The notes beneath the pieces were generated by a model. It saw only the letters and a list, made by a program, of their open reading frames with translations. It did no database searches and was not told the DNA's origin. Both the position numbers and the translations under genes were made by a program. From contig JBKDKX010000006.1 in the NCBI GenBank assembly GCA_046344715.1, positions 96,826 to 160,825 of the forward strand: a stretch of DNA of 64,000 nucleotides, given 5' to 3'. Shown in pieces: positions 1,513-26,715 of the stretch. The stretch's first letter is position 1. Every line of letters starts with the position of its first letter. The stretch is from Alphaproteobacteria bacterium (GTDB taxonomy: Bacteria; Pseudomonadota; Alphaproteobacteria; Rickettsiales; SXRF01).

Positions 1513-2580
1513 TCACGCCTTCAAAACGCGGTTTTTACGGTTATATTGCATGGAAGACCAAAGGGATAACAGGATAAAGCCCAGCCCAATCAACCCTGTG
1601 ATAATCTCTGACACATGCATGGTCATAGATAGTAGCATGATGGCCGCCAGCGCCCCGATGCCCCAATGCGCGCCGTGCTCCAGATACACATATGCATCTA
1701 GCGTACCTTTACGCACCATGTAGATTGTCATCGAGCGCACAAACATCGCTCCAATACCCAACCCGATCATGATAATTACCACATCTTTGCTTATGGCAAA
1801 CGCGCCAATCACGCCGTCGAGCGAGAAGGATGCATCGAGCAACTGCAGATACATAAAGCCCATAAAACCGGCATAACCCACTGATTTTGTAGCGTGCTCC
1901 GCTGCATCCTCACCACCGCCACACAAGGTAGTAAGGCTGCCAATCGCCACATACAATACCACGCCGATAATGCCTGCAAGCAGCGCACCATGTTGTTCAT
2001 GTTCCGGTAATAGAGATTGCATAATAAGCAGCAAGGTAATCGCCACAATCACCTCGGCTGATTCCAGCTTGCCTACTTTGGCGAGCTTGCTCTCCAGCCA
2101 GTGTATCCAGTGAATATCCTTGCCTTCATCCAGCACGAATTTCAGGAACACCATAAGCAGAAACATGCCGCCGAAAGCCGCAATCGCAATGTGTGAATCC
2201 AGGACGTGTTTGCTATATTCATCGGGCTTTTCCAGCGCCAGATGCCCCACATCCCACAATGGCAGACCGGTAGCAAATGCCACAATAACCAGCGGGAATA
2301 AAAACCGCATACCAAACACCGCGATTAAAATACCCCATGTCAAGAATCGCTGCTGCCATTTCTCGCTCATATGACGCAGCACCGTGGCATTCACCACAGC
2401 GTTATCAAACGAGAGGGATACTTCCATGATGGTAAGGAGTGTGGCGATAATCAGGCCATTCACACCCGCCCACATATAAGCAAGTACCAGCCCAACGATG
2501 GTAACGATGAAAGAGAGGGTGAAGTATTTCATAAACCCCGCATAAGCGAAGCGCATTGCGGGGTCCGGTTCGCTAAACAT
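1513..2580 (-). CDS. TerC/DUF475-family integral membrane protein
   Basis: 355-aa multi-pass membrane ORF with an EVSLSFDNAVVNATVL motif that I associate with the TerC/DUF475 family. Confidence 0.6.
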   Translation of the reverse strand: MFSEPDPAMRFAYAGFMKYFTLSFIVTIVGLVLAYMWAGVNGLIIATLLTIMEVSLSFDNAVVNATVLRHMSEKWQQRFLTWGILIAVFGMRFLFPLVIVAFATGLPLWDVGHLALEKPDEYSKHVLDSHIAIAAFGGMFLLMVFLKFVLDEGKDIHWIHWLESKLAKVGKLESAEVIVAITLLLIMQSLLPEHEQHGALLAGIIGVVLYVAIGSLTTLCGGGEDAAEHATKSVGYAGFMGFMYLQLLDASFSLDGVIGAFAISKDVVIIMIGLGIGAMFVRSMTIYMVRKGTLDAYVYLEHGAHWGIGALAAIMLLSMTMHVSEIITGLIGLGFILLSLWSSMQYNRKNRVLKA

Positions 2581-2614
2581 TCTGAATTAATTATTTGCAT
2601 GATTCTTTTTCCTA

Positions 2615-2640
2615 AAACCAGACCCCGCCATTCGGCGGGG
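2615..2640 (-). terminator. GC hairpin (ccccgcc/ggcgggg) downstream of the 3-hydroxyacyl-CoA dehydrogenase gene; the 26-nt sequence recurs at 25877-25902
   Basis: aaaccagaccccgccattcggcgggg contains a 7-bp GC stem with a 4-nt loop. On the minus strand it is followed by tctggtttt. It lies between the stop at 2650 and the next gene's start at 2580. Confidence 0.55.
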
Positions 2641-2649
2641 CTTACATCA

Positions 2650-5007
2650 TTAGTTCCTCAGCGGTTTGCCCGTAGTCAGGATATGCTCAATGCGCGCTAG
2701 TGAATCTTTATGCTTCACCAGCTCCATGAAGGATTCAAACTCAAGGTCAAGAAGTTGCTGCTCGGTCAGCGGCTCGGACATATCGGTATCACCACCGGAA
2801 AGTACCACCGCCAGATGCTTACACACCACCACATCATGCGGTGTTGCTTTGCCTGCTGCCTTGAACCCATCCACCGCCATGTTCATCGCAACCTTGGCAG
2901 ACTTGCCCGGCAGATGCAGCACAGACTGTTCCGGAGTTTTATAATCTTTCGCCATTTCCAAGCAGCGCGCTTTGGCATCAGCCAGCACGCGCACGCGGTT
3001 CATAGTTATACCATCCGTCTCGCGGATGATTTTCATATCACGCGCTTCTTCAGCTGACATGCACACTTTGGCGGTAGCAATCGCTTCAAATACTTTGGTG
3101 ATGGCAGGCATGGCACCACCTGTTGCCATCAAATTGCCGATCATCCCCCCTGAAGAACCTTTGTTTTCCCCAAGCTGGCGAATGAGCATCTCCTTACAGC
3201 CGCCCCACGCCGGGATCAGGCCAACACCCACTTCCACCAACCCTGCATAGGATTCGATATGCGCCTGCACCGCATTGGAATGCAGCACGATCTCGCAACC
3301 ACCCCCAAGCGCACGGCCCGTGAGCGATGCCACCACAGGGAACGGTGCATATTTAAGTGCCATCACCGCGTGCTGGCCAGCACGAATCACTTCGCCAATC
3401 TGTCCCCATGCTGCAATATTTGCTGCCATCAATACGAAGCCGAGGTTCGCACCAACAGAGAAATTATCCGCATCATTGCCAACCACTAAGCCTTTGAAAT
3501 TCTGCTTCACCGTGCCGATGGATTGCTCGATCATCGAAAGAATATCCGGATCCACCGAGTTCATTTTTGATGTGAGTTCTAAACACGCAATGCCATCACC
3601 CAAATCCCACAGTGATGCTGAAGCATTCTTCGCAACCGGCTTGGTGGTGAGCTTAATATCAGAAACCATCAGCGAACCACTCGGCGGGATAATCGCCTCA
3701 TACTGGCCACCAATAGTGAAGGCCTGGCGCCTGCCAGCTTCTGCGCCATACAGTTTTTTGCCGCGTGCTTTTTCGATGATCGCAGGAACGGACTTACCAT
3801 CCGCCTTCAACTGGTCGGCAAACCAATCTACGCCCAGGCGGTCAATCATTTCAAATGGGCCGTACTTCCAGTTATAACCCATCTTCATTGCATCATCGAT
3901 ATCGGCGATATGGTCAGAAATTTCCGGTACCAGTGACGCCGCATAATGCAGCGTGCCAAGCAATACAGAGCGTGCATACTGCCCGCCAATATCCTTATGC
4001 GACATGAGTGCGGCCATGCCGGATTTTGCTGCCTCAATACTCGCGAGCTCCACCTTTTTCGGTTGCGTATAATATTCGCCGGTTTGCAGATTGATGACTT
4101 CTTTTATCTTTTTGTCATCCACCTTGTTCACGCGATAAAAACCACCTTTGCCTTTGCGGCCGGTGTAGCCATCCGCGATCATTTTGGTGACCAGTGCGGG
4201 CTCCTGATACGCCGTATTGAATGCATCGCTCGCCGGAAGCGTTGCTTTCATTTCACGCGCAATCAGCGGCATCAAATCAATACCGATGAGGTCAAACAAC
4301 CCGAACACGCCGGTCTTTGGAATACCAACAGGCTTGCCCATCACCGCATCGGCCTGTTCAACTGTAATGCCGAGGCGAATCGCTTCCGTCAACCCCTGCA
4401 TCAGCCAGTACACGCCAATACGGTTGGCGATAAAGCCCGGCGTATCCTTGCAATGCACCACGCCTTTGCCCAAATGCACATCAGCGAAATTGCAGATAGC
4501 ATCAAAGGCCGGTTTCTCGCACGCACCCTGCACCACTTCTAGCAAGCGCATATAGCGCGGCGGGTTAAAGAAGTGGGTGATCATGAAATGTTTTTTGAAG
4601 CCGTCAGAGAAGCCTTTGGTTAGCTCATGCAGTGGAATGGTGGAGGTGTTGGAAGAAACCACCGCATCAGGCTTACGTACCGACTCGATCTTTTTATACA
4701 CATCATGCTTTACTTCCAGCTTTTCGAGCACCACCTCGATAATCCAGTCGCAGTCGGCCAGCAGCTTCAAATCATCTTCCAGATTGCCACAGGTGATCAG
4801 CTTGGCGCGGTCTTTATGTACAAAACCGGCGGGGCTGGCTTTAAGCTGCTTTTCTACAGCAGATTCAGTGAGTTGGTTACGATTTGCGGCATCTTTAGGC
4901 ACAATATCGAGTAAAACCACCTTGGTGCCCGAATTAGCGACCTGCGCGGCAATGCCACTGCCCATCACACCCGAACCCAAAACACCCACTTTTTTGATAT
5001 TTGCCAT
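2650..5007 (-). CDS. Bifunctional 3-hydroxyacyl-CoA dehydrogenase / enoyl-CoA hydratase (dehydrogenase domain N-terminal)
   Basis: 785 aa. N-terminal Rossmann motif VGVLGSGVMGSGIA, a HACD-type middle region, and a C-terminal crotonase-like ALGGGCEIVLH. An aagga SD lies upstream of the ATG. Confidence 0.85.
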   Translation of the reverse strand: MANIKKVGVLGSGVMGSGIAAQVANSGTKVVLLDIVPKDAANRNQLTESAVEKQLKASPAGFVHKDRAKLITCGNLEDDLKLLADCDWIIEVVLEKLEVKHDVYKKIESVRKPDAVVSSNTSTIPLHELTKGFSDGFKKHFMITHFFNPPRYMRLLEVVQGACEKPAFDAICNFADVHLGKGVVHCKDTPGFIANRIGVYWLMQGLTEAIRLGITVEQADAVMGKPVGIPKTGVFGLFDLIGIDLMPLIAREMKATLPASDAFNTAYQEPALVTKMIADGYTGRKGKGGFYRVNKVDDKKIKEVINLQTGEYYTQPKKVELASIEAAKSGMAALMSHKDIGGQYARSVLLGTLHYAASLVPEISDHIADIDDAMKMGYNWKYGPFEMIDRLGVDWFADQLKADGKSVPAIIEKARGKKLYGAEAGRRQAFTIGGQYEAIIPPSGSLMVSDIKLTTKPVAKNASASLWDLGDGIACLELTSKMNSVDPDILSMIEQSIGTVKQNFKGLVVGNDADNFSVGANLGFVLMAANIAAWGQIGEVIRAGQHAVMALKYAPFPVVASLTGRALGGGCEIVLHSNAVQAHIESYAGLVEVGVGLIPAWGGCKEMLIRQLGENKGSSGGMIGNLMATGGAMPAITKVFEAIATAKVCMSAEEARDMKIIRETDGITMNRVRVLADAKARCLEMAKDYKTPEQSVLHLPGKSAKVAMNMAVDGFKAAGKATPHDVVVCKHLAVVLSGGDTDMSEPLTEQQLLDLEFESFMELVKHKDSLARIEHILTTGKPLRN

Positions 5008-5255: not shown

Positions 5256-5990
5256 ATGAACGAAAAAAACTCAGCAAACCACATTTCAACCACAGTGGGC
5301 GGTTATGATGTAACAATTAGCCTGCAGCAAAATAAGAATTTCATTGTGCATGCAAAAAATCAGGCCGTATCCATATTATTATATAAGGCCGCGAAGGAAG
5401 CATTGGGTGACAATGTAAAATTTCCTGAGCATACTGGTTTCTTGTATGGCAACTTTGAGGTAAGTTCCATGCCGGTAACAGGACATGCTATAAGTGCTGC
5501 AGATATATCAGCAATAGCGAGCGCAGTGAATGCAGAGTATCCGAATCGTAAAGCCATTATTGACGCAACACTAGAGGCACGAAAGTACTTTACCGAAGCT
5601 GAGAAACATGAAGAAGCACTAAAGAAGGCGCATGATGTGGTAGATCATCTGGCAGGGGTTACAGAACATTATATGCGTGATAAAGGCACTCCCATAACGC
5701 TACCTGAAACCAGAGCGCTCGCACATAAAATGGCGGAAGCGTATGTTGCGGATGCAAAGATTGCTAAAAAAGCCGATGCTGCACCAAAGAATTTATCATC
5801 AAAAGAAGCGCGTGATGCGGTAATGCATATGGCAGGTGTCGCTCAGAAATTTCTGAATGAGATTGGCAAACCAATAGATAATCAGGAATTACAGGCATTA
5901 GTTGATAAAATGGCTGAGGCGCATATTAAGGATTCGTCCATTAAGAGTAGAATTAATACCTCGGGGAGCGAGCTAACTATTAGGGTGTAA
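5256..5990 (+). CDS. Hypothetical protein with an internal duplication of about 45 aa
   Basis: 244-aa ORF in an AT-richer insert. Two related segments are AHDVVDHLAGVTEHYMRDKGTPI..ALAHKMAEAYVADAKI and ARDAVMHMAGVAQKFLNEIGKPI..ALVDKMAEAHIKDSSI. I do not recognise a family. Confidence 0.5.
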   Translation: MNEKNSANHISTTVGGYDVTISLQQNKNFIVHAKNQAVSILLYKAAKEALGDNVKFPEHTGFLYGNFEVSSMPVTGHAISAADISAIASAVNAEYPNRKAIIDATLEARKYFTEAEKHEEALKKAHDVVDHLAGVTEHYMRDKGTPITLPETRALAHKMAEAYVADAKIAKKADAAPKNLSSKEARDAVMHMAGVAQKFLNEIGKPIDNQELQALVDKMAEAHIKDSSIKSRINTSGSELTIRV

Positions 5991-6035
5991 TGAATCCGGC
6001 CGCGTAAATATTGATATATAACTTGGCAATACATA

Positions 6036-6506
6036 ATGTTTGGAAGACACCCTGAAACGCCACCACCTCCTGCTGATCCGGAAGGCACCATACGCATCGG
6101 TGGTGTGCGGGTAAGCGTTAAGGCAGAGGCAGACCACATAGCGGTCACACTGCACGACAAGCGCATCTTACATTATAAATTATTTACGGTTATCGACGCA
6201 CACCTTCACGAAAAAGGCTTCAGGCTCATCTCGGGCTCAATCAGGCAAACGGGGATGGAACGGCAAGGCATTTCGTTGATAAGCCAAGCATCATTATCCT
6301 GCATAGCACACAGGAAAATACGATGCCACTCACAGCAGAATCCATTGAAACTTGTTGCAAGGAGCTGTCAGAACGCATTCCCGATTCAGGCAAACTCACG
6401 GAAGCATTTGGAAATGTCGAACATCGCAGGAGAAACGAAGCAATTACTGAAAGATTTCGAACAAATGGCGGACAAGGAAGGGCTTGAATATGAAATTTTG
6501 GGATAA
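6036..6506 (+). CDS. Hypothetical protein, possibly degraded
   Basis: 156-aa ORF. The second half reads poorly, and an alternative 55-codon frame (MPLTAESIETCCKELSERIPDSGKLTEAFGN...) overlaps it from about 6322, so frame integrity is doubtful. Confidence 0.3.
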   Translation: MFGRHPETPPPPADPEGTIRIGGVRVSVKAEADHIAVTLHDKRILHYKLFTVIDAHLHEKGFRLISGSIRQTGMERQGISLISQASLSCIAHRKIRCHSQQNPLKLVARSCQNAFPIQANSRKHLEMSNIAGETKQLLKDFEQMADKEGLEYEILG

Positions 6507-6942
6507 ATTTAAGGACAAGAAAAGAAGCAATCAATTCACGCTCGATGCAACATCGCGCAAAGCCGAAGAGCTTGTGTTTATTGTAAGGGATATTGAGATA
6601 GCCGTAAAGAAATTGTCCGCAAATGAAGGTATTGCTGAAGTACATTTTCGCGGTGGCACGGAAGACGAGCGAAGCAGCCTCTCTACATTATTGCTAACAA
6701 AGATCCCAGATGAATTCGGTTATGCAATGCGTAGCGGGAGTCCAGTCAGCGGAGACCCAGAAGTTAGGCGCACAGCAAGATATGATGAAGATTACATACT
6801 CTTTAGCTCTCCAGATGATGTCCCATTGGTTGATTTCCGAAATCCAGCTCCAACAAAACCACCCGTGACCTTCGAGGTGCTAAGCCATGCCGCAGAAAGT
6901 ATTGAACGGAAGTATAAAAGCAGGATTTTAGGCGAAGGCTAA
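6484..6942 (+). CDS. Hypothetical protein
   Basis: 152-aa ORF (MNMKFWDKFKDKKRSNQF...). Its stop overlaps the stop of the convergent thiolase gene. No recognised motifs. Confidence 0.4.
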   Translation: MNMKFWDKFKDKKRSNQFTLDATSRKAEELVFIVRDIEIAVKKLSANEGIAEVHFRGGTEDERSSLSTLLLTKIPDEFGYAMRSGSPVSGDPEVRRTARYDEDYILFSSPDDVPLVDFRNPAPTKPPVTFEVLSHAAESIERKYKSRILGEG

Positions 6943-10510: not shown

Positions 10511-11500
10511 TCACTTCCCCTTCTTCTGCCCGCTCAGCACTTTCCGGTATTGCTGCACATAGGCGTTGTGCTGGCTGAGGGTTTCAGAAAAATTATGCCC
10601 TCCGGTGCCGGTGGCCACAAAATAGAGCTCCTTAGTATCCGGTGGATTTAATACCGCTTCAATAGATGCACGCCCGGGGTTGGCAATGGGTGCAGGCGGC
10701 AGGCCTGCATATACATACGTGTTATACGGTGAATCATATTGCAGGTCTTTTAGCGTTAATGCCTGCTTGAGTGGCCCTTTATCTTTTTCTACACCATACG
10801 CCACTGTGGGGTCAGATTGCAGCTTCATGCCCAACTTCAAACGGTTGACGAACACCGCCGCCACTCGTGGCCGCTCGGAGGCCACACCGGTTTCTTTTTC
10901 TACAATCGAGGCCAGCACCAATGCTTCTTCCACCGTGCGTACTGGCAGGTTTGCCTTACGCTTCGGCCAGACTTCTGCAAGCAATTCCTGCATGGCGGCC
11001 TGCATCCGCGCCACCACCTGTTGACGGGTGTCACCATAGGTAAAATGATAGGTTTCAGGCAGGAGCGTGCTTTCTTTTATGCCTTGTGGAACAGCGCCTT
11101 CCAGCACCGCTTCTTGCTGCAATAGTGCCATGATTTCCGGCACTGTGAGACCTTCCGGAAGTGTGATTTTGTGCACCACCACCTCACCGCTTGCTACCAT
11201 CTCCATCGCTAAACGTGGAGAGGTACCGGCGGGGAAAGCATATTCTCCGGCTTTGAATTTACGGCCATCACCCGTTGCCGCAGCAATAGCTTTGAACAGT
11301 AGCGGATGGCGTATAACACCTTTTTCCGCCATATGATCAACGATGGCCTGAAAGCCCATACCTTTTTTGAAAATGATGTTGGATGGTTCGGCAAGCGGGC
11401 CTGCGGCATCATAATAATATTTCGTGTAGGCAGCGGTTGCTGCACCAATCATTACCAATATTACAATGACTCTGGAAAATTTCTTCGCAGTCTGACGCAT
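10511..11500 (-). CDS. mltG: Endolytic murein transglycosylase (YceG-like)
   Basis: 329 aa. N-terminal TM segment and YceG-type LASIVEKETG...VFVNRL...LQSDPTVAYG. The start overlaps the fabF stop (TGATG). Confidence 0.85.
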   Translation of the reverse strand: MRQTAKKFSRVIVILVMIGAATAAYTKYYYDAAGPLAEPSNIIFKKGMGFQAIVDHMAEKGVIRHPLLFKAIAAATGDGRKFKAGEYAFPAGTSPRLAMEMVASGEVVVHKITLPEGLTVPEIMALLQQEAVLEGAVPQGIKESTLLPETYHFTYGDTRQQVVARMQAAMQELLAEVWPKRKANLPVRTVEEALVLASIVEKETGVASERPRVAAVFVNRLKLGMKLQSDPTVAYGVEKDKGPLKQALTLKDLQYDSPYNTYVYAGLPPAPIANPGRASIEAVLNPPDTKELYFVATGTGGHNFSETLSQHNAYVQQYRKVLSGQKKGK

Positions 11501-12756
11501 CAGACGCGCTTGAACACTACGGAAGCATTCGTGCCACCAAACCCAAACGAGTTGGAAAGCGCGGCATTCACTGTGCGCTGCTTTGCGGTGTGCGGCACGA
11601 GGTCAATGTCACATCCTTCGGATGGATCATCCAGATTGAGTGTCGGCGGCACCGTGTTATGCACGATGGAAAGCACGGCAAACGCAGCCTCAACCGCACC
11701 GGCTGCACCGAGCAGATGGCCGATGGCTGACTTGGTAGAAGACATAGAAATTGTATTCGCTGCATCACCAAACAGGCGCTTTACCGCACCAAGCTCGATT
11801 TCATCACCCAGCGGCGTCGATGTGCCGTGCGCATTTACATAATCAACATCGGATGGATTTAAACCCGCGCGATTCAATGCTGCCTGCATGGCGCGGAACC
11901 CGCCGTCACCCCCTGGGGCTGGCGCAGTGATGTGATACGCATCACCCGACAAACCATAGCCAACAATTTCAGCATAAATTTTTGCGCCGCGTTTTTTCGC
12001 GTGTTCATATTCTTCCAGCACCAATATGCCTGCACCCTCACCCATCACGAAACCATCCCGGCCTTTGTCCCACGGGCGGGAGGCTTTTTCAGGAGTATCA
12101 TTATAGGAAGTGGAAAGTGCGCGAGCAGCAGCAAAGCCTGCAAGGCCGATGCGGCAGATGGTTGCTTCCGCACCACCCGCCACCATGATATCCGCATCAC
12201 CAAACTGTATGAGGCGGGATGCATCACCAATGGCGTGTGCGCCAGTGGAGCATGCTGTTACCACGGAATGGTTCGGGCCTTTGAAGCCATATTTTATAGA
12301 TACCTGACCAGATGCCAGATTGATAAGACATGCCGGAATGAAGAATGGGCTCACACGGCGCGGGCCTTTTTCTTTCATCAGCAATACGGTTTCTTCAATA
12401 GCATTCAGGCCACCAATACCGGAGCCAATCATTACACCGGTGCGGAGCTTTTCTTCTTCGCTCAAAGAGGCAATGCCTGCATCTTCCACCGCTTCAGTCG
12501 CCGCGCCAAAAGCAAAATGGATGAAATCATCCATTTTCTTTTGCTCTTTAACTTCAATGTAATTATCGGCATTGAACTGGCCAGCTTCCAGCCCACGCGG
12601 CACTTGCCCCGCAATGCGCGCCGGAATGTCAGACACATCAATACGCGTAATGGCAGATAAGCCGGATTTAGACGCTATCAGATTATCCCACGTGGTTTTA
12701 ACCCCGCAACCCAGCGGTGTAACCAAACCCATACCCGTGATAACGACTCTTCTCAT
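11500..12756 (-). CDS. fabF: Beta-ketoacyl-ACP synthase II
   Basis: 418 aa. RRVVITGMGLVTPLG, active-site ACSTGAHAIG, HGTSTPLGD, NSFGFGGTNASVVF. Confidence 0.9.
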   Translation of the reverse strand: MRRVVITGMGLVTPLGCGVKTTWDNLIASKSGLSAITRIDVSDIPARIAGQVPRGLEAGQFNADNYIEVKEQKKMDDFIHFAFGAATEAVEDAGIASLSEEEKLRTGVMIGSGIGGLNAIEETVLLMKEKGPRRVSPFFIPACLINLASGQVSIKYGFKGPNHSVVTACSTGAHAIGDASRLIQFGDADIMVAGGAEATICRIGLAGFAAARALSTSYNDTPEKASRPWDKGRDGFVMGEGAGILVLEEYEHAKKRGAKIYAEIVGYGLSGDAYHITAPAPGGDGGFRAMQAALNRAGLNPSDVDYVNAHGTSTPLGDEIELGAVKRLFGDAANTISMSSTKSAIGHLLGAAGAVEAAFAVLSIVHNTVPPTLNLDDPSEGCDIDLVPHTAKQRTVNAALSNSFGFGGTNASVVFKRV

Positions 12757-19543: not shown

Positions 19544-20611
19544 ATGCATAACACCCCTACCCTTGAAGTAAGCCTTGCAGCACTGTCAGCTAACTACGAA
19601 CTGCTCAAATCCAAGCTGGAAGGTCGCCTGTGCGCTGCTGTGGTGAAAGCCAACGCGTATGGCCTTGGCATGGAAGGCGTAAGCAAACATCTCGCAACTA
19701 TTGGCTGTAATCAGTTTTTTGTGGCAACATTTGCAGAAGCTATCGATTTACGCGCTGTGTTGCCCGATGCCATTATTTATGTATTTCAGGGTGTGTTGCC
19801 AAATGAGGAAAAAGAATTCCTGCATCACAATCTCATTCCGGTACTCAACAGCACGGAACAAGTTGCACGTTGGGAGAAAGTAGCCGCTGAGAAAAATGCC
19901 GTGCTGCACGTGGACACCGGCATGACGCGCCTTGGCCTGAATGAAACCGAAGCACTGGCACTTGCTGCCGATAAAGCACGCGTTGCAGCGCTCGGCATCC
20001 GCATGGTGATGAGCCACCTCGCCTGTGCTAATGATGGCGATCTGGAAAAAAGCAATGACCAGCGCATGCGTTTTGAAAAAGCCCTGCATGCATTCCCTCA
20101 GCCAATGTCAGCAAGCCTCGCCAATTCCGCCGGTGTGTTTTTAAGCAAGGATTACCATTATGATATTGCGCGCACGGGCTGCGCTCTCTATGGCATCACG
20201 CCCATCACTGGTACAAACCCGATGCAGCATGTGGCAACCCTCTCTGCTCCTATCCTGCAAATACGCACTCTCGACCGCGATGAAACCGTAGGTTACGGTG
20301 CAACGCACGCTGCGAAAAAAGGCAACCGCATTGCCATTACCGCACTGGGCTATGCTGATGGCATGATGCGCTCACTTAGCAATCGTGGCTTTGCCTATGT
20401 TGCAGGTGAGAAAGTGCCGTTTGTTGGCCGCGTATCCATGGATATGATTGCGCTGGATGTAAGCAATATTCCGGAAGCCAAATTGACAGGCACACGCGCA
20501 GAATTCATCAACGCAAAGCAGGATGTGAATATGCTCACTGCCCTGTGCGACACCATCGGCTATGAAATGTTCACCCGCATGGGTGGCCGCGTAAAACGCC
20601 TTTACGTGTAA
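19544..20611 (+). CDS. alr: Alanine racemase
   Basis: 355 aa. VVKANAYGLG (PLP lysine), MSHLACA, VGYGAT, VSMDMIALDV. Confidence 0.85.
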   Translation: MHNTPTLEVSLAALSANYELLKSKLEGRLCAAVVKANAYGLGMEGVSKHLATIGCNQFFVATFAEAIDLRAVLPDAIIYVFQGVLPNEEKEFLHHNLIPVLNSTEQVARWEKVAAEKNAVLHVDTGMTRLGLNETEALALAADKARVAALGIRMVMSHLACANDGDLEKSNDQRMRFEKALHAFPQPMSASLANSAGVFLSKDYHYDIARTGCALYGITPITGTNPMQHVATLSAPILQIRTLDRDETVGYGATHAAKKGNRIAITALGYADGMMRSLSNRGFAYVAGEKVPFVGRVSMDMIALDVSNIPEAKLTGTRAEFINAKQDVNMLTALCDTIGYEMFTRMGGRVKRLYV

Positions 20612-20655: not shown

Positions 20656-21129
20656 ATGGAAAACATATTTCCCAATGACACCACCATCACACTTGCAGGC
20701 AAACCATACCGCCTGCGCGCAAGCATTGCGGCACTCTGCGCCATTGAACAGCATCTCAATCTGCCGATTCACACGCTTGCCGAACATACCTTTACTAATG
20801 CACAGGCCGTATTTATTTTACATGCGGGGATTGATGCCGCCGGTTATCAGCCCATTCACATAACTGATGATGAACCACACCTGCATGAATATGCACGCGC
20901 ATTTATTGCAGGTGCCCTTCAGGATAAAACAGAACTCAACTGGCGCGGGATGTTTACAACATTCACAGGCATCATGAACCGCCCCACTGCAGAATTCTGG
21001 AACATTACGCTGGCGGAATATTCACTTATTGTGGAAGGCTTTTGCCTGATGCACGGGCTTGAACCCCACCGCGCCCTTCCCCCCGCAACTTCCCAAGACC
21101 TTGCAGAGATGATAAGAAGGTTCGGGTAA
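20656..21129 (+). CDS. Phage/GTA tail-assembly-chaperone-like protein; appears to fuse RcGTA g10-like and g11-like (rcc01693/TIGR02216-like) segments
   Basis: The N-terminal half ITLAGKPYRLRASIAALCAIEQHL resembles the 'gene transfer agent family protein' pattern (..G....LRLTLGALAELE..L). The C-terminal half NWRGMF..GIMNRPTAEFWNITLAEYSLIVEGF...PPATSQDLAEMIRRF resembles the rcc01693 pattern (LS..eFW.mTPrEl...leG....pl....L..Lm.rFPD). This is recollection only. Confidence 0.5.
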   Translation: MENIFPNDTTITLAGKPYRLRASIAALCAIEQHLNLPIHTLAEHTFTNAQAVFILHAGIDAAGYQPIHITDDEPHLHEYARAFIAGALQDKTELNWRGMFTTFTGIMNRPTAEFWNITLAEYSLIVEGFCLMHGLEPHRALPPATSQDLAEMIRRFG

Positions 21130-21153
21130 CATTAACAAATGTGAATATCAACT

Positions 21154-21675
21154 ATGACTTATAGCAGGAAAACGCAAAATTGCATCAAGTTACTCTTATG
21201 TCTTCTGCCTTTTGCGCTTGTTGCATGGATAATAAAACTATCCTTCAACCTTATGATTGGGGACATCATTACTACCGGTGAAATCAGCAAAACCATAGAT
21301 AGGCGGCATTTAATCTTTACCTATCGTTTAACAAAAGCCATTGGTGCTCAGGAACACATTATCAATCTAGAAGCTATTGCCACAGATGAGTGGACTGGCT
21401 TTCTTTGGGATACCGTGTGTCGTTATGATGATTATGAATATGTAGGCGATCCAGATCCTGACATACTGGTTGGATGGTATTTACGGTTTTCACAAAAAGG
21501 CCGCGATGCTGGCGCAACGTATAATTTTAAGGCTACGGACTACGGAGATGGTATGCGCCCAAATAACCCAGACAGAGAATGGTGCGTGATGCGATCGCAC
21601 GCAATTTTATATAAGCAATCATTCGGGTGGGTATTGATGGACAAGCGAAACATCCCTCGAGGACAAGAGAAATGA
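21154..21675 (+). CDS. Membrane-anchored hypothetical protein (paralogue 1)
   Basis: 173 aa. N-terminal TM segment LLLCLLPFALVAWIIKLSF. It shares W-D-x-V-C-x-Y (FLWDTVCRY) and C...AI..K....L..K (REWCVMRSHAILYKQSFGWVLMDK) with the next ORF. Its stop overlaps the next start (ATGA). Confidence 0.55.
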   Translation: MTYSRKTQNCIKLLLCLLPFALVAWIIKLSFNLMIGDIITTGEISKTIDRRHLIFTYRLTKAIGAQEHIINLEAIATDEWTGFLWDTVCRYDDYEYVGDPDPDILVGWYLRFSQKGRDAGATYNFKATDYGDGMRPNNPDREWCVMRSHAILYKQSFGWVLMDKRNIPRGQEK

Positions 21676-22112
21676 TAAAATATCATATTATGTCAATTAT
21701 CCGTATGCAAAGCAGGTTTTACTGGCTGGTTATATGCTGTCTATGCATCATCGTGCTTTATATGCAATTTCGTATATTTAGCGTTCTGTATGAGCATCGT
21801 GAAAACTACAAATTTGGTTATGCGCTGCACGAAAAATTTATTGATACTGATGTAACAGTCATTCGACTTCATGAATTAACAGATTTTAGTTGGGATAACG
21901 TTTGTTTCTATCCTGATTTTCCAACCGTTCAACGACTGGAATTTCGTAATATTTTTGGAAGTGTTAAATATAATCTGAACGTAACCAGTTATGACCTCTT
22001 TGATCCAAGTCTATCCAGCGTAAAAGCAGCAGAGTGCATAACATCAAAAGAGGCGATCTTCAGAAAACACGGAAATAGATTTTCTTTAGAGAAAACAACA
22101 AAAGGGAACTAA
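21672..22112 (+). CDS. Membrane-anchored hypothetical protein (paralogue 2)
   Basis: The start is moved to ATG 21672, which overlaps the upstream TGA. TM segment FYWLVICCLCIIVLYMQF. Motifs FSWDNVCFYPDF and AAECITSKEAIFRKHGNRFSLEK. Confidence 0.55.
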   Translation: MIKYHIMSIIRMQSRFYWLVICCLCIIVLYMQFRIFSVLYEHRENYKFGYALHEKFIDTDVTVIRLHELTDFSWDNVCFYPDFPTVQRLEFRNIFGSVKYNLNVTSYDLFDPSLSSVKAAECITSKEAIFRKHGNRFSLEKTTKGN

Positions 22113-22113
22113 C

Positions 22114-23037
22114 ATGGCAGACACCACGACCATACCGGATTTTAATCCTATATCACGTGAGGAGATGGAAACAAGAGCGGCAAAAATAGCAGAACAACAA
22201 GGATTCAAAGATCGCTACGATATTGACGCCTTCAGGCACGCATATACCGCTGCAATGATGACCAAATTTCATTTGGGTGATGTTGCAACGGGCACGCTAG
22301 GATATGGCGTAGAATTTATAGGTCTTTGGACTAGAGGAGCAAAAGACTTATTTCAAAGTATTATGGAATTATTTGGCACAGAACATTCTGAATCAGAACG
22401 CGTACATTATGATGAACAATTTCTGGAATCATCCATGGATGCGTTCAACAATGCTGTCGGCATCGCTATTGGTAAAGAAGCATCTTCTGAACAGGAAATC
22501 ATCAAACGAATAACTGAGAAGATTCACAATGGTGAAATTGTTCGTCATCCCAACGAAGTAAAAGACCGCATGAGAAAAGAACGGGAAATTTCTCAGCAAA
22601 ACTTCGTCGCCAACGATACATCATGTCGTGCTGGCAACTTCGACACCTCCTCTCTCATCCGTGCCATTAGTGGCGGCAAGAACAGCCGTATGTCGAGCAA
22701 GCAGATATTTTCCATGTCTGCCGCAGCCTTCGCGCAGGAACTCATCAAATCCCGCAGGCGTTCGCTGGAAAATGATTTGCTGGAACTTCTAAGCGGCGGC
22801 AATGGAAAGAATACCCTGGCACAGGCAGGAAACGGCACCCCCATGGCATCACTAACAAACACATTTGGCGGCATGATTGATAACCTCGTAGGATCGGCCA
22901 TGAACCGCCGCAAAACACGCACATCCACCGCCGAATCTGATCGATCCATTGAAACCAGCCGGAATTGGAACCCTAGCCGCAGCCAGCAACAGGCGATGTT
23001 GGCGGGCTGGGCGCAGCAAGGGAATAGAAACTTATAA
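22114..23037 (+). CDS. Hypothetical 307-aa protein. The N-terminal domain carries DAFRHAY and MDAFNNAVGIAIG motifs (possibly DUF6973-like); the C-terminal half is Gly/Ser/Asn/Arg-rich and low in complexity
   Basis: The ATG lies 1 nt after the upstream stop. There is no signal peptide or TM segment. The motif pair (D/N)AFRHAY ... MD..NN..G..IG matches my memory of an uncharacterised domain found in polymorphic-toxin-type proteins. Unverified. Confidence 0.5.
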   Translation: MADTTTIPDFNPISREEMETRAAKIAEQQGFKDRYDIDAFRHAYTAAMMTKFHLGDVATGTLGYGVEFIGLWTRGAKDLFQSIMELFGTEHSESERVHYDEQFLESSMDAFNNAVGIAIGKEASSEQEIIKRITEKIHNGEIVRHPNEVKDRMRKEREISQQNFVANDTSCRAGNFDTSSLIRAISGGKNSRMSSKQIFSMSAAAFAQELIKSRRRSLENDLLELLSGGNGKNTLAQAGNGTPMASLTNTFGGMIDNLVGSAMNRRKTRTSTAESDRSIETSRNWNPSRSQQQAMLAGWAQQGNRNL

Positions 23038-23041
23038 TCAA

Positions 23042-23102
23042 GTTGCTAGTTGCACCTTGCTGCATTAAAACTACTAGCAACAAACAACTGATAACTAGCA
23101 AC
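23042..23102 (+). repeat. Inverted repeat set gttgctagtt / actagcaac / aactagcaac between the cassette and mlaE
   Basis: 23042-23051 can pair with either 23073-23081 (9 nt) or 23093-23102 (10 nt). It may act as the terminator of the upstream operon or as alternative structures in the mlaE leader (mlaE ATG at 23109). Confidence 0.5.
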
Positions 23103-23108
23103 TAATCC

Positions 23109-23883: not shown

Positions 23884-24423
23884 ATGGCAACACTCATTCC
23901 GCTTCAGCGTATTGAACAAAAAATCCTGCTGATTCGTGGGCAGAAGGTACTGCTGGACTCCGACCTCGCCGAACTTTACGGTGTCCCTACCAAGCGCCTG
24001 AATGAACAGGTAAAACGTAACATTGAGCGTTTTCCTGGGCATTTCATGTTTCAGCTTACTGAAGAAGAACTCGAAAATTGGAGGTCGCAAATTGCGACCT
24101 CCAATCCTAATGCAAAAATGGGTCTGCGGCGCGCCCCTTACGCCTTCACCGAACATGGCACTTTGCAGGCTGCCAATGTTATCAATTCTCCGGCAGCCAT
24201 CAAGGTAAGTATCCTCATCATAGAGGCATTCCTTAAACTGCGCCAGCTAACCGCCAGCCAATCTGCCATACTCAAAAAGCTGGAACAGCATGAAAAACAG
24301 ATTGGGTATTTATTCAATTTGTTAAAAGAAATGGCTGATGCACCCACAGAACCACAGTATAAATCGCACCGTATTGGTTTTCTGAAAGAAGATAAAAACA
24401 AGCAAAGGCTGAGGAAACAATGA
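23884..24423 (+). CDS. ORF6N (KilA-N-related) domain protein
   Basis: IEQKILLIRGQKVLLDSDLAELYGVPTKRLNEQVKRNIERFPGHFMFQLTEEELENWRSQIATS...APYAFTEHGTLQAANVINSPAAIKVSILIIEAF is the classical ORF6N pattern. The ATG lies 1 nt after the mlaE stop, and its stop overlaps the mlaF ATG (ATGA). Confidence 0.8.
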   Translation: MATLIPLQRIEQKILLIRGQKVLLDSDLAELYGVPTKRLNEQVKRNIERFPGHFMFQLTEEELENWRSQIATSNPNAKMGLRRAPYAFTEHGTLQAANVINSPAAIKVSILIIEAFLKLRQLTASQSAILKKLEQHEKQIGYLFNLLKEMADAPTEPQYKSHRIGFLKEDKNKQRLRKQ

Positions 24424-25253: not shown

Positions 25254-25853
25254 ATGATTCCTGACATAATTTCAAAATTACAGCAAACTATTAGCAATGG
25301 GATTAAGACTGAAGCACAGGTCGTTTATGTCCTTGTGCAAATACGTAAGATTTTGGAGCAACAGGGCAATGCAGCACAACAATATGAGTATCTAAAATTT
25401 TACTGTGATTGGGCATTACATACAAAATTGAGCGGCAGATTCACTCAAACCATTTTGCAGGATTTTAACAGTGCTAATATAGAACTAAGAAATGGCTTAG
25501 AATTACATGAATTGCCAAAAAATCTTCAATCTCAAATCGAGCAAATTATAAAGATGCAGAAATTCCGAGAAGAGTTATCAAACTTCTCACTGGCAAATGA
25601 TTTGCCATCGTTGGATAGGGGTGGTGGTGGTTGGCCACATTTTCTACATCTCTATGCAAAAATTATAAAAGATTCCCCCTTAGAAATGAAGGCCGATAAT
25701 ACTACAGTAAGTATTGAAAAAGTGATTGTTGATGTCGAATTGGCTCAGGAAATACAACACCATCAGCAATATTATAAAGTGAAGTGGACGATTTTTGATA
25801 GAAACGGAAGCCACGGAACGCTTTTTGTTATCAACTCTTTTACCGTCAATTAA
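25254..25853 (+). CDS. Hypothetical protein (orphan, AT-rich)
   Basis: 199-aa ORF with no TM segment or signal peptide. No recognised motifs. Confidence 0.45.
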   Translation: MIPDIISKLQQTISNGIKTEAQVVYVLVQIRKILEQQGNAAQQYEYLKFYCDWALHTKLSGRFTQTILQDFNSANIELRNGLELHELPKNLQSQIEQIIKMQKFREELSNFSLANDLPSLDRGGGGWPHFLHLYAKIIKDSPLEMKADNTTVSIEKVIVDVELAQEIQHHQQYYKVKWTIFDRNGSHGTLFVINSFTVN

Positions 25854-25876
25854 ATTATTATTCTCTATGACGGATT

Positions 25877-25902
25877 AAACCAGACCCCGCCATTCGGCGG
25901 GG
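25877..25902. terminator. Bidirectional GC hairpin between convergent genes; identical 26-mer to 2615-2640
   Basis: aaaccagaccccgccattcggcgggg, with stem ccccgcc/ggcgggg at 25885-25902. Confidence 0.55.
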
Positions 25903-25905
25903 GTA

Positions 25906-26715
25906 TTAAGCAGCCAGCCTCTCGCGTTTTTCACGCGGTGGGTTTTCCACCATCTTCTTCGGATTAAACAGCAGCGGCTTACGGTGATGGTTGCCGTGAT
26001 AGTAAAGCCCAAACCACAATAGATTTCCCAGCTTGGTATACAACGTATCATCGCGGTTTACGGCGTATGTCTTGCCGTTCTCATCTTTAGGGTGTGAATA
26101 GTAATTCACATGAGAGAATATCCAGTGGTTGAACAGGTATGACGGTACATACAGCCATAAAAACAACGCAGGCCCCAGCAAGAAAAACCAGAACAGCACA
26201 TTGCACGCTGCCATCGCAAGAAACACTGGCTTTAATATGCGATGCAAAATGATAGTGCGTTTTGTTTCGCCGTAATGTTCACGATAACGCTCGGTTACTT
26301 TCTGTGAAGACTTAAGGAACATGTGCTTCATGAATTGCATAAATGTGTAGTCCGCTGGCGGGTGCGGATCATAGCGCAAATCATCGGAATAATGATGATG
26401 CATCAGGTGAATCAACTTCCAGCCCATGAAGCCCCAGAGTTGGTGTATTCCCGCCACTTCACCTGCCACCACATTCATCCATCGCGGTTTAAAACTACCA
26501 TGGCACGCATTATGGATAAACACCGCTGAAAGCCCACCAATATAGATTGCGGGCAGAATTAATAATGGATGCCACCATGCAAACGAATAACTAAAAAATT
26601 CTGGTGGGCGGATGTTATAAAGCAACGCACACAGCACTGCAGATGCCAGCAAATGCAGCGCAAACGAGCGAATATGCAAATAAGGATCCTGATAAAAACG
26701 CTTAAGTAGAGGCAT
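25906..26715 (-). CDS. Membrane fatty-acid desaturase/hydroxylase family protein
   Basis: 269 aa with three histidine boxes, HNACHGS, HLMHHHYSD and HGNHHRKP, plus TM segments. It lies 6 nt downstream of the secA stop. Confidence 0.7.
   Translation of the reverse strand: MPLLKRFYQDPYLHIRSFALHLLASAVLCALLYNIRPPEFFSYSFAWWHPLLILPAIYIGGLSAVFIHNACHGSFKPRWMNVVAGEVAGIHQLWGFMGWKLIHLMHHHYSDDLRYDPHPPADYTFMQFMKHMFLKSSQKVTERYREHYGETKRTIILHRILKPVFLAMAACNVLFWFFLLGPALFLWLYVPSYLFNHWIFSHVNYYSHPKDENGKTYAVNRDDTLYTKLGNLLWFGLYYHGNHHRKPLLFNPKKMVENPPREKRERLAA

Follow-up and report, generated by a model that had tools for sequence, protein, structure and literature searches.

A candidate tail-chaperone and tape-measure-like gene islet with a polymorphic head and exported partner proteins in a Rickettsiales-type genome

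Introduction

The gene transfer agent (GTA) that Rhodobacter capsulatus produces, RcGTA, has a tail channel filled by trimeric tape measure protein (TMP), whose C-terminal domains lie beside the baseplate iris. The TMP has a long alpha-helix of 12/13-residue repeats at its N-terminus, and it is expelled into the recipient periplasm before the DNA (PMC7296036). Purifying selection acts on the GTA genes that are widespread in Rickettsiales and related symbionts, and whose function is unexplained; these genes lie in several clusters across the genome, and many of the tail parts are described as 'missing or undetected' (PMC9254644). Here, we describe a four-gene unit in a 64 kb stretch (hereafter the window) of contig JBKDKX010000006.1, from an alphaproteobacterium placed in the Rickettsiales. 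We present it as a candidate for the chaperone and tape measure so far unaccounted for in such GTAs, the two lying in an islet of their own and diverged beyond the reach of routine annotation.

Three other kinds of system bear on the comparison. Some phage tape measures, such as Pb2 of phage T5 and the TMP of mycobacteriophage TM4, have built-in cell-wall hydrolase domains. The bactericidal type IV effectors of Xanthomonas combine variable N-terminal toxins with a conserved C-terminal domain that binds VirD4. Finally, tape measures are themselves targets, and gp15 of phage HK97 is a superinfection-exclusion protein directed against the TMP. The lipoprotein Ltp of phage TP-J34 targets the TMP of the incoming phage (Bebeacua et al. 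2013, as cited in PMC3952083).

The original prediction, made from the letters of the window, had proposed a three-gene cassette at 21154-23037 that might be an effector/immunity module or, alternatively, might end in a tape-measure-like protein with an enzymatic head. These limits turned out to be too narrow, the unit starting at 20656 with a chaperone gene. Related loci, amounting to about 189 kb, were examined in addition to the window; these loci and individual relatives are cited by serial handles (L and P numbers) where they have to be told apart.

A fused tail assembly chaperone of the GTA type

Taken alone, the product of the first gene falls below the thresholds of the two Pfam families that it resembles: Phage_TAC_11 ('GTA-gp10'), over residues 10-65 (E=0.0035, 17.8 bits against a cut-off of 27.8), and Phage_TAC_6, over residues 112-156 (E=0.057, 14.3 bits against a cut-off of 23.4). 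When the family was extended to ten members, gathered from protein searches and from the related loci, all ten matched both of these families and nothing else, with best E values of 1.8e-8 and 5.2e-8, respectively.

The reference for further comparison was a canonical RcGTA-type cluster on a Paracoccus replicon, in which the genes for portal, protease, capsid, tube, a 'gene transfer agent family protein' and tape measure are followed by those for TIGR02217, DUF2163, a peptidase and a host specificity protein. Using hhalign, the chaperone family aligned to g10 of this cluster with a probability of 95.8% (E=7.6e-9) and to the overlapping g10.1 open reading frame (ORF) with a probability of 90.7% (E=1.2e-6). 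A single uninterrupted ORF of 157 amino acids (aa) spans both chaperone domains in the window, compared with two overlapping ORFs in Paracoccus, and there is no two-ORF programmed-frameshift arrangement as in G/GT of phage lambda. On the strength of its matches to both proteins, the window gene is thus g10 (N-terminal part) and g10.1 (C-terminal part) fused in one frame. Searches of phage records and of plasmids with the chaperone by tblastn returned nothing, and hydropathy analysis (Kyte-Doolittle) found no hydrophobic segment in the chaperone or in the last protein of the unit, ORF3.

The C-terminal module of ORF3 and its likeness to GTA tape measures

ORF3 (22114-23037, 307 aa) is divided into a variable head and a conserved C-terminal module. 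The module consists, in order, of a helix (...SAAAFAQELIKSRRRSLENDLL...), a Gly-rich loop, a second helix (...GGMIDNLVGSAM...), an R/T/S-rich stretch and a terminal helix, WNPSRSQQQAMLAGWAQQGNRNL-COOH, encoded at 22966-23034.

The terminal helix provides the link to GTA tape measures. A profile was made from the last 45 aa of 33 family members, none of them from a GTA cluster, and searched against all 934 six-frame ORFs of the window and five GTA loci. ORF3 ranked first, followed by the GTA-cluster TMPs of Shinella (E=6.8e-6), Paracoccus (1.1e-4; the gene is annotated as tape measure) and Methylobacterium (8.2e-4), and the next match had E=2. All three TMP alignments cover roughly the last 25 residues, up to the stop codon. 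In addition, when g11, the GTA tape measure, was taken from four GTA clusters and compared with the terminal module by hhalign, the two aligned with E=3.3e-4 over the last 27 columns, and they have in common the terminal pattern [FW]xxSx[SG]QxxAx[LM]xxxxxxGxR[NS]x-COOH. One family member also gave a weak match to Tape_meas_lam_C (E=0.027) on the upstream helix.

The module is well conserved at the protein level. Its rate of nonsynonymous change (dN) is 0.17-0.25 against L001, L002 and L003 and 0.41 against L011, the most distant locus, as compared with 0.10 for alr, 0.35-0.51 for the chaperone gene and 0.63-1.07 for the head; synonymous change (dS) is saturated, so that ratios of dN to dS are rough. 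These data make a fairly well-supported case, from sequence comparison, that ORF3 is a tape-measure-like protein with a C-terminal anchor helix, encoded downstream of its chaperone. Together with the fused chaperone, the match to the C-terminus of GTA tape measures leaves the alternative first proposed, a tape-measure-like protein with an enzymatic head, as the best supported reading.

Some further searches for relatives of the module yielded little. A scan of metagenomes with the module found one truncated contig, and a word-indexed protein search with its profile found two fragments only. Sequence searches of the PDB gave nothing for the module, nor for two of the alternative heads described below (the M15 head, and the L016 head with its neighbour), a result that says little given that the RcGTA TMP has no model (PMC7296036). 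In one relative (P0008, 283 aa, on a 3.1 kb contig), the terminal helix is lost after '...RRKT' and replaced by an unrelated end, likely by a frameshift, pseudogene formation or an assembly error.

The DUF6973 head and its alternatives

The original prediction had assigned the paired motifs of ORF3 to an uncharacterised domain and suggested DUF6973, and this was borne out: the head matches Pfam DUF6973 (PF22322) with E=7.7e-9 and 35.6 bits against a gathering cut-off of 27, and the relatives P0023, P0033 and P0048 likewise score above the cut-off. ORF3 carries the motifs as DAFRHAY and MDAFNNAVG. The invariant residues of the head are D38, F40, R41, H42, Y44, E67, D109, N112, N113 and G116, and the paired DxFRHxY / DxxNNxxG residues (all of these but E67) are invariant or nearly so over 8 and 33 sequences. 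The His of 'HNN' is not conserved and is F in the window. ORF3 has no signal peptide.

Only eight close relatives of ORF3 were found in a collection of 5.8 billion proteins, and among seven homologues the mean pairwise identity is 32% in the head versus 74% in the C-terminal module. An AlphaFold2 model of the head, built from a 33-sequence alignment, is an all-helical core with a mean predicted local distance difference test score (pLDDT) of 77.6 and a predicted template modelling score (pTM) of 0.71. Foldseek searches of the PDB gave no match with E<0.1 for either this model or that of full-length ORF3 (pLDDT 56). The best matches in a library of viral folds, and the only good ones, were DUF6973 domain-containing proteins of uncultured tailed phages.

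DUF6973 is used as a module in several architectures. Outside the ORF3 family (P0043, P0060 and P0061), some DUF6973 proteins end in a repeated 'VK(S/G)YTRxDGTxVxxHxR'; in two others (P0049 and P0052) the domain stands at the C-terminus of longer proteins.

The C-terminal module is likewise joined to several different partners. A phmmer search of 1.84 billion representative proteins returned 53 proteins, many of which match the C-terminal module alone. The N-termini found on the module are DUF6973, an M15 peptidase, a domain of no recognized kind beginning 'MPGRIFIESKP' and a further unassigned head in L016, and some proteins are headless (123-174 aa). The M15 head (L013 4456-5616), scanned alone, matches Peptidase_M15_3 with 24.0 bits against a cut-off of 23.2 and also gives a VanY match; its motifs are SGYR, H-x6-D and a later His. 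The L016 head has a 'QESSG...GLYQM' segment that looks lysozyme- or transglycosylase-like by eye only, and Pfam gave no match for it.

Gene order and co-variation in related loci

The association of the module with a tail assembly chaperone extends beyond the window. Nine distinct loci include upstream flank, and in seven of these a chaperone gene of the same family precedes, by 0-3 genes, the gene that encodes the C-terminal module (the chaperone-linked loci listed are the window, L002, L003, L011, L013, L014, L015, L016 and the P0002 contig). In L015, a tail tube gene (Phage_tail_2, E=1.4e-36) adjoins the chaperone gene, and its product shares 44-47% identity with the 'phage major tail protein, TP901-1 family' found in the GTA clusters of Sphingomonas and Paracoccus. 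The loci occupy unrelated chromosomal sites, following alr, dapB, ispE, the L28 gene, an aminotransferase gene or mlaC. Two metagenome-assembled genomes (MAGs), which contain L001, L002, L003 and L009, have two tape-measure-like genes each, which differ in their heads and follow alr in one case and dapB in the other. Each of these MAGs has one chaperone gene, and there is none beside the C-terminal-module gene in the second copies, L001 and L009; presumably, the one chaperone serves both tape-measure-like genes via the conserved module.

The genes inserted between chaperone and tape-measure-like genes differ from locus to locus. Pairs of W..VC proteins (see below) occur in the window, L003 and L011. 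A minus-strand gene for a protein with multiple transmembrane (TM) segments, starting 'YWxGKRSxKxAF', occurs in L001, L002, L009 and L011. L015 has three paralogous multi-TM proteins, and L013 has a lipoprotein gene whose stop lies 1 nucleotide (nt) before the start of the gene with the M15 head. The closest relative of the window unit, on the P0002 contig, has a single inserted gene of 146 aa; its chaperone is 79% identical to that of the window and its head only 34%.

In the small sample at hand, the inserted genes vary with the subtype of head: KD[LF]YNN heads are accompanied by the minus-strand multi-TM gene (4 of 4 loci), and MDxxNN heads by the W..VC pair (2 of 2 loci). In L011 both types of partner are present, some of them possibly as orphan genes. 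The composition of the window unit varies as well. GC content falls from 0.50-0.54 in the flanks to 0.35-0.42 exactly across ORF1, ORF2 and the first 165 codons of ORF3, and returns to 0.54, with GC at third codon positions (GC3) of 0.60, over the last 142 codons of ORF3. Co-variation and composition together point to the exchange of partner genes and head, as one block, between a conserved chaperone gene and a conserved C-terminal module.

In L011, a LexA-like repressor gene (helix-turn-helix plus Peptidase_S24; 4154-4762) and small ORFs of no assigned function (1672-4033) lie just upstream of the chaperone gene, which hints at SOS-type control or at a mobile-element setting of the module.

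The two membrane-anchored proteins, ORF1 and ORF2

The genes between the chaperone gene and ORF3 are arranged as first described. Direct reading places ORF1 24 nt after the chaperone-gene stop (21127-21129), an ATGA overlap between ORF1 and ORF2 at 21672-21675, and the ORF2 stop (TAA, 22110-22112) a single C (22113) before the ATG of ORF3. The predicted single N-terminal TM helix of each protein was confirmed as well, with mean Kyte-Doolittle values over 19 residues of 2.33 for ORF1 and 2.27 for ORF2. In ORF1, the signal-anchor helix (about residues 8-40) is followed by a predicted exported domain with the Cys of the W..VC motif (C89) and a second conserved Cys (C144). ORF2, which has the lowest GC content in the unit, has the same architecture, with C78 and C122.

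The proposal that the two are diverged paralogues held up under proper alignment and a profile test, less strongly for ORF1. BLASTP aligned ORF1 and ORF2 over 87 aa with 25% identity (E=2e-4), and tandem pairs of homologues occur in two other genomes (L003 5845-6237 and 6234-6896; L011 6322-6792 and 6802-7254). The resulting six-protein family, ORF1 and ORF2 plus four foreign members, has in common the N-terminal TM helix, F..L, W[DE]xVC and a second invariant Cys. When a profile of the four foreign members alone was run against 2183 six-frame ORFs, its two best non-self matches were ORF2 (E=2e-6) and ORF1 (E=0.1), the next having E=4.8. The ranking of ORF2 and ORF1 ahead of all else supports the paralogy, firmly as regards the family membership of ORF2 and less so for ORF1.

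Neither protein matches a Pfam, NCBIfam or PHROG family, and NCBIfam gave nothing for any of the four proteins of the unit. A holin- or spanin-like lysis role was considered and set aside, given the single TM segment with a globular two-Cys domain and the co-variation with the head subtype. Their position and architecture suggest ORF1 and ORF2 as candidate immunity or partner proteins of the ORF3 head.

Genomic setting of the unit

The features of the unit are collected in Table 1. The plus strand has no terminator-like site within 20656-23037, and a terminator-like site lies at the end of alr (20588-20608); with no such site inside the unit, the four genes look like one transcription unit.

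Table 1. Positions of the features discussed, numbered from the first nucleotide of the window.
Feature	Positions	Strand	Length	GC	Remarks
Tail assembly chaperone (TAC), g10+g10.1 fusion	20656..21129	+	157 aa	0.50	Pfam/hhalign
ORF1	21154..21675	+	173 aa	0.42	Candidate immunity/partner protein for ORF3 head
ORF2	21672..22112	+	146 aa from ATG at 21672	0.345	ORF1 paralogue (supported)
ORF3 residues 1-165, variable DUF6973 head	22114..22608	+		0.41	GC3 0.345
ORF3 residues 166-307, conserved tape-measure-like C-terminal module	22609..23037	+		0.54	GC3 0.60
Low-GC block (ORF1, ORF2 and head), presumed exchangeable cassette	21154..22608	+			Composition
Intergenic element upstream of mlaE, GTTGCTAGT and two copies of ACTAGCAAC	23041..23103	.			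Conserved sequence

The original prediction had the cassette closed by an inverted repeat. The repeat exists: GTTGCTAGT at 23042-23050 pairs with ACTAGCAAC at 23073-23081 (arms of 9 nt, loop of 22 nt), and an additional direct copy of ACTAGCAAC lies at about 23094-23102. The idea that it ends the cassette as a terminator was rejected. The repeat (23042-23081) has no T-run, and in L002, where the surrounding stretch (23038-23108) is 83% identical, the changes in the arms are not compensatory. For these two reasons it looks like a conserved protein-binding or promoter element upstream of mlaE rather than an RNA hairpin, and it probably belongs to mlaE and lies outside the cassette.

The gene order in the window runs from the gene for ribosomal protein L9 through dnaB, alr, the cassette, mlaE, an ORF6N gene and mlaF to, later, secA, and the same backbone is found in MAGs labelled 'uncultured Rickettsiales bacterium'. 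The ORF6N/anti-repressor-like gene (23884-24423; Pfam E=6e-33, PHROG 'anti-repressor' E=7e-26; GC 0.457) begins 1 nt past the mlaE stop and overlaps the mlaF start by 4 nt at its end. In L002, mlaE and mlaF are adjacent, and the window gene is therefore an insertion inside the mla operon. A second small insertion beside the cassette lies between mlaF and secA (25254-26715), where a 199-aa ORF (GC 0.358, no family match) and a fatty-acid desaturase gene are present that are not found in the syntenic L002. Three successive plus-strand ORFs at 5256-6942 (244, 156 and 152 aa) match no Pfam family at E<=1e-5. The Paracoccus GTA cluster starts directly after fabF-mltG (L017 1-2194); the window has fabF followed by yceG/mltG at 10511-12756, without adjoining GTA genes.

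Explanations for the unit and points against them

The explanation that we favour, and hold to be somewhat better than an even bet, is that the unit is one islet, diverged in sequence, of a Rickettsiales-type GTA whose genes are scattered; it would encode the chaperone and a tape measure with an exchangeable effector head, plus candidate immunity or partner proteins. During tail assembly, the chaperone would hold the conserved C-terminal module, and the terminal helix would dock in the tail channel on the baseplate side, as in RcGTA; anchoring at this site would explain why the terminal helix is conserved. On contact with a cell, the TMP would be ejected into the recipient periplasm with its N-terminal head carried in the channel, and the head would then act on the envelope from the periplasm. 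ORF1 and ORF2 would sit in the inner membrane, each with a two-Cys domain that could form a disulfide and would face the periplasm, and would meet the head there. They would be its cognate partners, most likely neutralising it in cells with the same cassette and thereby protecting self or kin. What favours neutralisation is that the sister heads include at least one peptidase of the peptidoglycan type, encoded next to a coupled lipoprotein gene. Head and partner genes would be exchanged jointly by recombination, with the chaperone gene and the C-terminal module serving as anchors.

Several observations weigh against this explanation. Regarding the identity of the tape measure, the central region of GTA tape measures (PFAKGGVV...GLMGEAGAEAIxPL), present in four GTA TMPs, is absent from ORF3, the homology to g11 by hhalign is confined to about 25-29 terminal residues, and the part outside the head is about 140 aa long versus 216 aa in RcGTA. 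For these reasons we speak of a tape-measure-like protein, not of an orthodox g11. AlphaFold2 confidence is below 50 in the C-terminal module; the model shows several shorter helices at low confidence over residues 146-303, with the N-terminus a globular DUF6973 domain. Also, the module has no match in PHROGs (nothing consistent for 16 proteins with the module), in phage or plasmid records (nothing by tblastn against the phage records) or in viral contigs (no relative in a scan with its profile). Regarding the particle, Pfam scans found no capsid, portal, hub or megatron gene in the window; outside the unit they revealed housekeeping and metabolic genes only, with no phage, GTA or secretion-system genes, and in the related loci the only GTA genes found were homologues of g9 and g10. 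Regarding head and partners, the activity of DUF6973 is uncharacterised and the head has no fold match in the PDB, the positive-inside rule leaves the membrane orientation of ORF1 and ORF2 unsettled, and the case for their immunity role is confined to position, topology and co-variation. A precomputed label, 'Ivy' (lysozyme inhibitor), for the gene that separates chaperone and tape-measure-like genes in L016 (8394-9494) was not reproduced by hmmscan or by PDB sequence search and was not used. Finally, if kin recipients carry the neutraliser, the head is not essential for delivery of DNA to kin.

The closest rival accepts the same identity for chaperone and tape measure, and differs in that ORF1 and ORF2 would sit in the inner membrane to recognise an incoming head, as factors for docking or for exclusion. 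Either DNA entry would be licensed only in cells with a matching allele, giving kin-restricted transfer, or entry would be blocked as in superinfection exclusion. Such an arrangement suits proteins that are membrane-anchored and exported, and that co-vary with the subtype of head, equally well, and the TMP-targeting Ltp of TP-J34 provides a precedent. However, the catalytic-type motifs of the sister M15 head are better suited to an enzyme that needs an inhibitor than to a recognition tag, and blocking entry into kin would defeat the presumed purpose of a GTA. We regard this rival as unlikely, though a serious contender.

Could the chaperone and C-terminal module have become detached from the particle altogether? 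The effector would then be exported by another route, such as a secretion system of type IV or type I able to read the conserved Gln-/Arg-rich C-terminus, after the model of the Xanthomonas type IV effectors, with ORF1 and ORF2 as classical immunity proteins. Such a history would be in keeping with the joining of variable N-terminal heads to one conserved module with a Gln-rich C-terminal end, with periplasmic or membrane-bound neighbours that resemble immunity proteins, and with the lack of other GTA genes in the window or within reach in the related loci. Yet the partner is specifically a tail assembly chaperone, L015 keeps a tube gene beside it, the terminal helix matches GTA tape measures in register, and neither the window nor the flanks of the related loci contain secretion-system genes, which makes detachment rather improbable in our judgement. 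A type IV effector signal or type I C-terminal signal had been set aside as an identity for the C-terminus of ORF3, considering its tail-chaperone partner and an end that matches GTA TMPs.

The weakest alternative, a functionless, decaying GTA or prophage tail remnant in which ORF1 and ORF2 are unrelated inserts (morons or lysis-type membrane proteins), would account for an islet isolated among housekeeping genes, for the foreign-GC insert and for the rarity of the family (the 53 matches noted above), but it appears very improbable given ORFs intact in more than ten loci of several genomes (some with two loci), a C-terminal-module dN of 0.17-0.25 over three diverged genomes (0.41 for L011) as compared with 0.10 for alr, translational coupling that has been kept, and the recurrence at unrelated chromosomal sites of the order chaperone, small exported proteins, head plus C-terminal module.

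As to the effector/immunity module first proposed, the favoured tape-measure explanation leaves it compatible, and not proven: polymorphic heads, an M15 peptidase head with a lipoprotein gene before it in a related locus, co-varying neighbours and the foreign-GC block speak for it, and the linkage to a secretion system that it might have had was not found in the window. The linkage that did emerge in other genomes is to the tail chaperone and, in L015, to the g9 tube gene, with no secretion-system genes in the flanks. A stronger version can be imagined, in which a GTA-derived tail, DNA-filled or not, injects polymorphic TMP heads into the periplasm of neighbours, protecting those that have the matching membrane proteins of the cassette and damaging the rest; we consider this doubtful, though not far-fetched. 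Were it true, it would represent a new route of interbacterial antagonism or kin discrimination, and would explain the purifying selection on GTA genes in Rickettsiales-type lineages.

Comparison with known systems

The unit resembles the tail module of RcGTA (g9, g10, g10.1 and g11) in that its chaperone is homologous to g10 and g10.1, ORF3 lies downstream of the chaperone with its C-terminal helix in register with g11 of Paracoccus, Shinella and Methylobacterium, and one related locus (L015) keeps g9 alongside. Unlike the situation in RcGTA, g10 and g10.1 are fused, and one to three small membrane or periplasmic genes stand between the chaperone and tape measure genes. ORF3 lacks the GLMGEAGAEAIxPL region of g11 and has a globular N-terminal head in place of the long N-terminal helix. 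Some genomes have two tape-measure-like loci, and the islet does not adjoin other GTA genes.

A likeness to T5 Pb2 and the TM4 TMP would be that of a tape measure with an envelope-acting domain ejected before the DNA, and sister loci here do carry an M15 head. The heads here differ in being exchanged among close relatives together with adjacent exported proteins, and the C-terminal module differs from phage tape measures in being found in no phage of the collections searched.

Like the polymorphic toxins (contact-dependent inhibition (CDI), Rhs, type VI and Xanthomonas type IV), the family combines a conserved delivery module with variable effector domains, small adjacent partner genes co-vary with the effector, and the variable block is compositionally foreign. 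Unlike in those systems, the conserved part is C-terminal and of apparent phage-tail origin, and the partner genes stand in front of the effector gene, after that of the chaperone. Neither the window nor the flanks of the related loci showed a dedicated secretion system (type IV, V, VI or VII).

ORF1 and ORF2 are comparable to exclusion proteins that target tape measures in being small factors, membrane-anchored or lipoproteins, exposed outside the cytoplasm, as far as TP-J34 Ltp is described in PMC3952083. We found no sequence relationship to Ltp, and the genes here, in contrast to it, lie inside a tail-assembly operon and co-vary with the head of the TMP.

The GTA chaperone, the tape-measure C-terminus and the Pfam DUF6973 domain are thus of known kinds. 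New, in the sense that the literature searched contained no description of them, are a tape-measure-like protein with a polymorphic N-terminal head, the exchange of that head together with exported partner genes located between the chaperone and tape measure genes, and a chaperone/TMP pair that forms a free-standing, sometimes duplicated islet in a Rickettsiales-labelled lineage. Swapping of head and exported proteins between close relatives is a signature of effector/immunity or of lock-and-key recognition systems. If this reading is correct, the unit provides a first functional context for DUF6973, and GTA-type particles would carry a self/non-self determinant or a weapon, not DNA alone.

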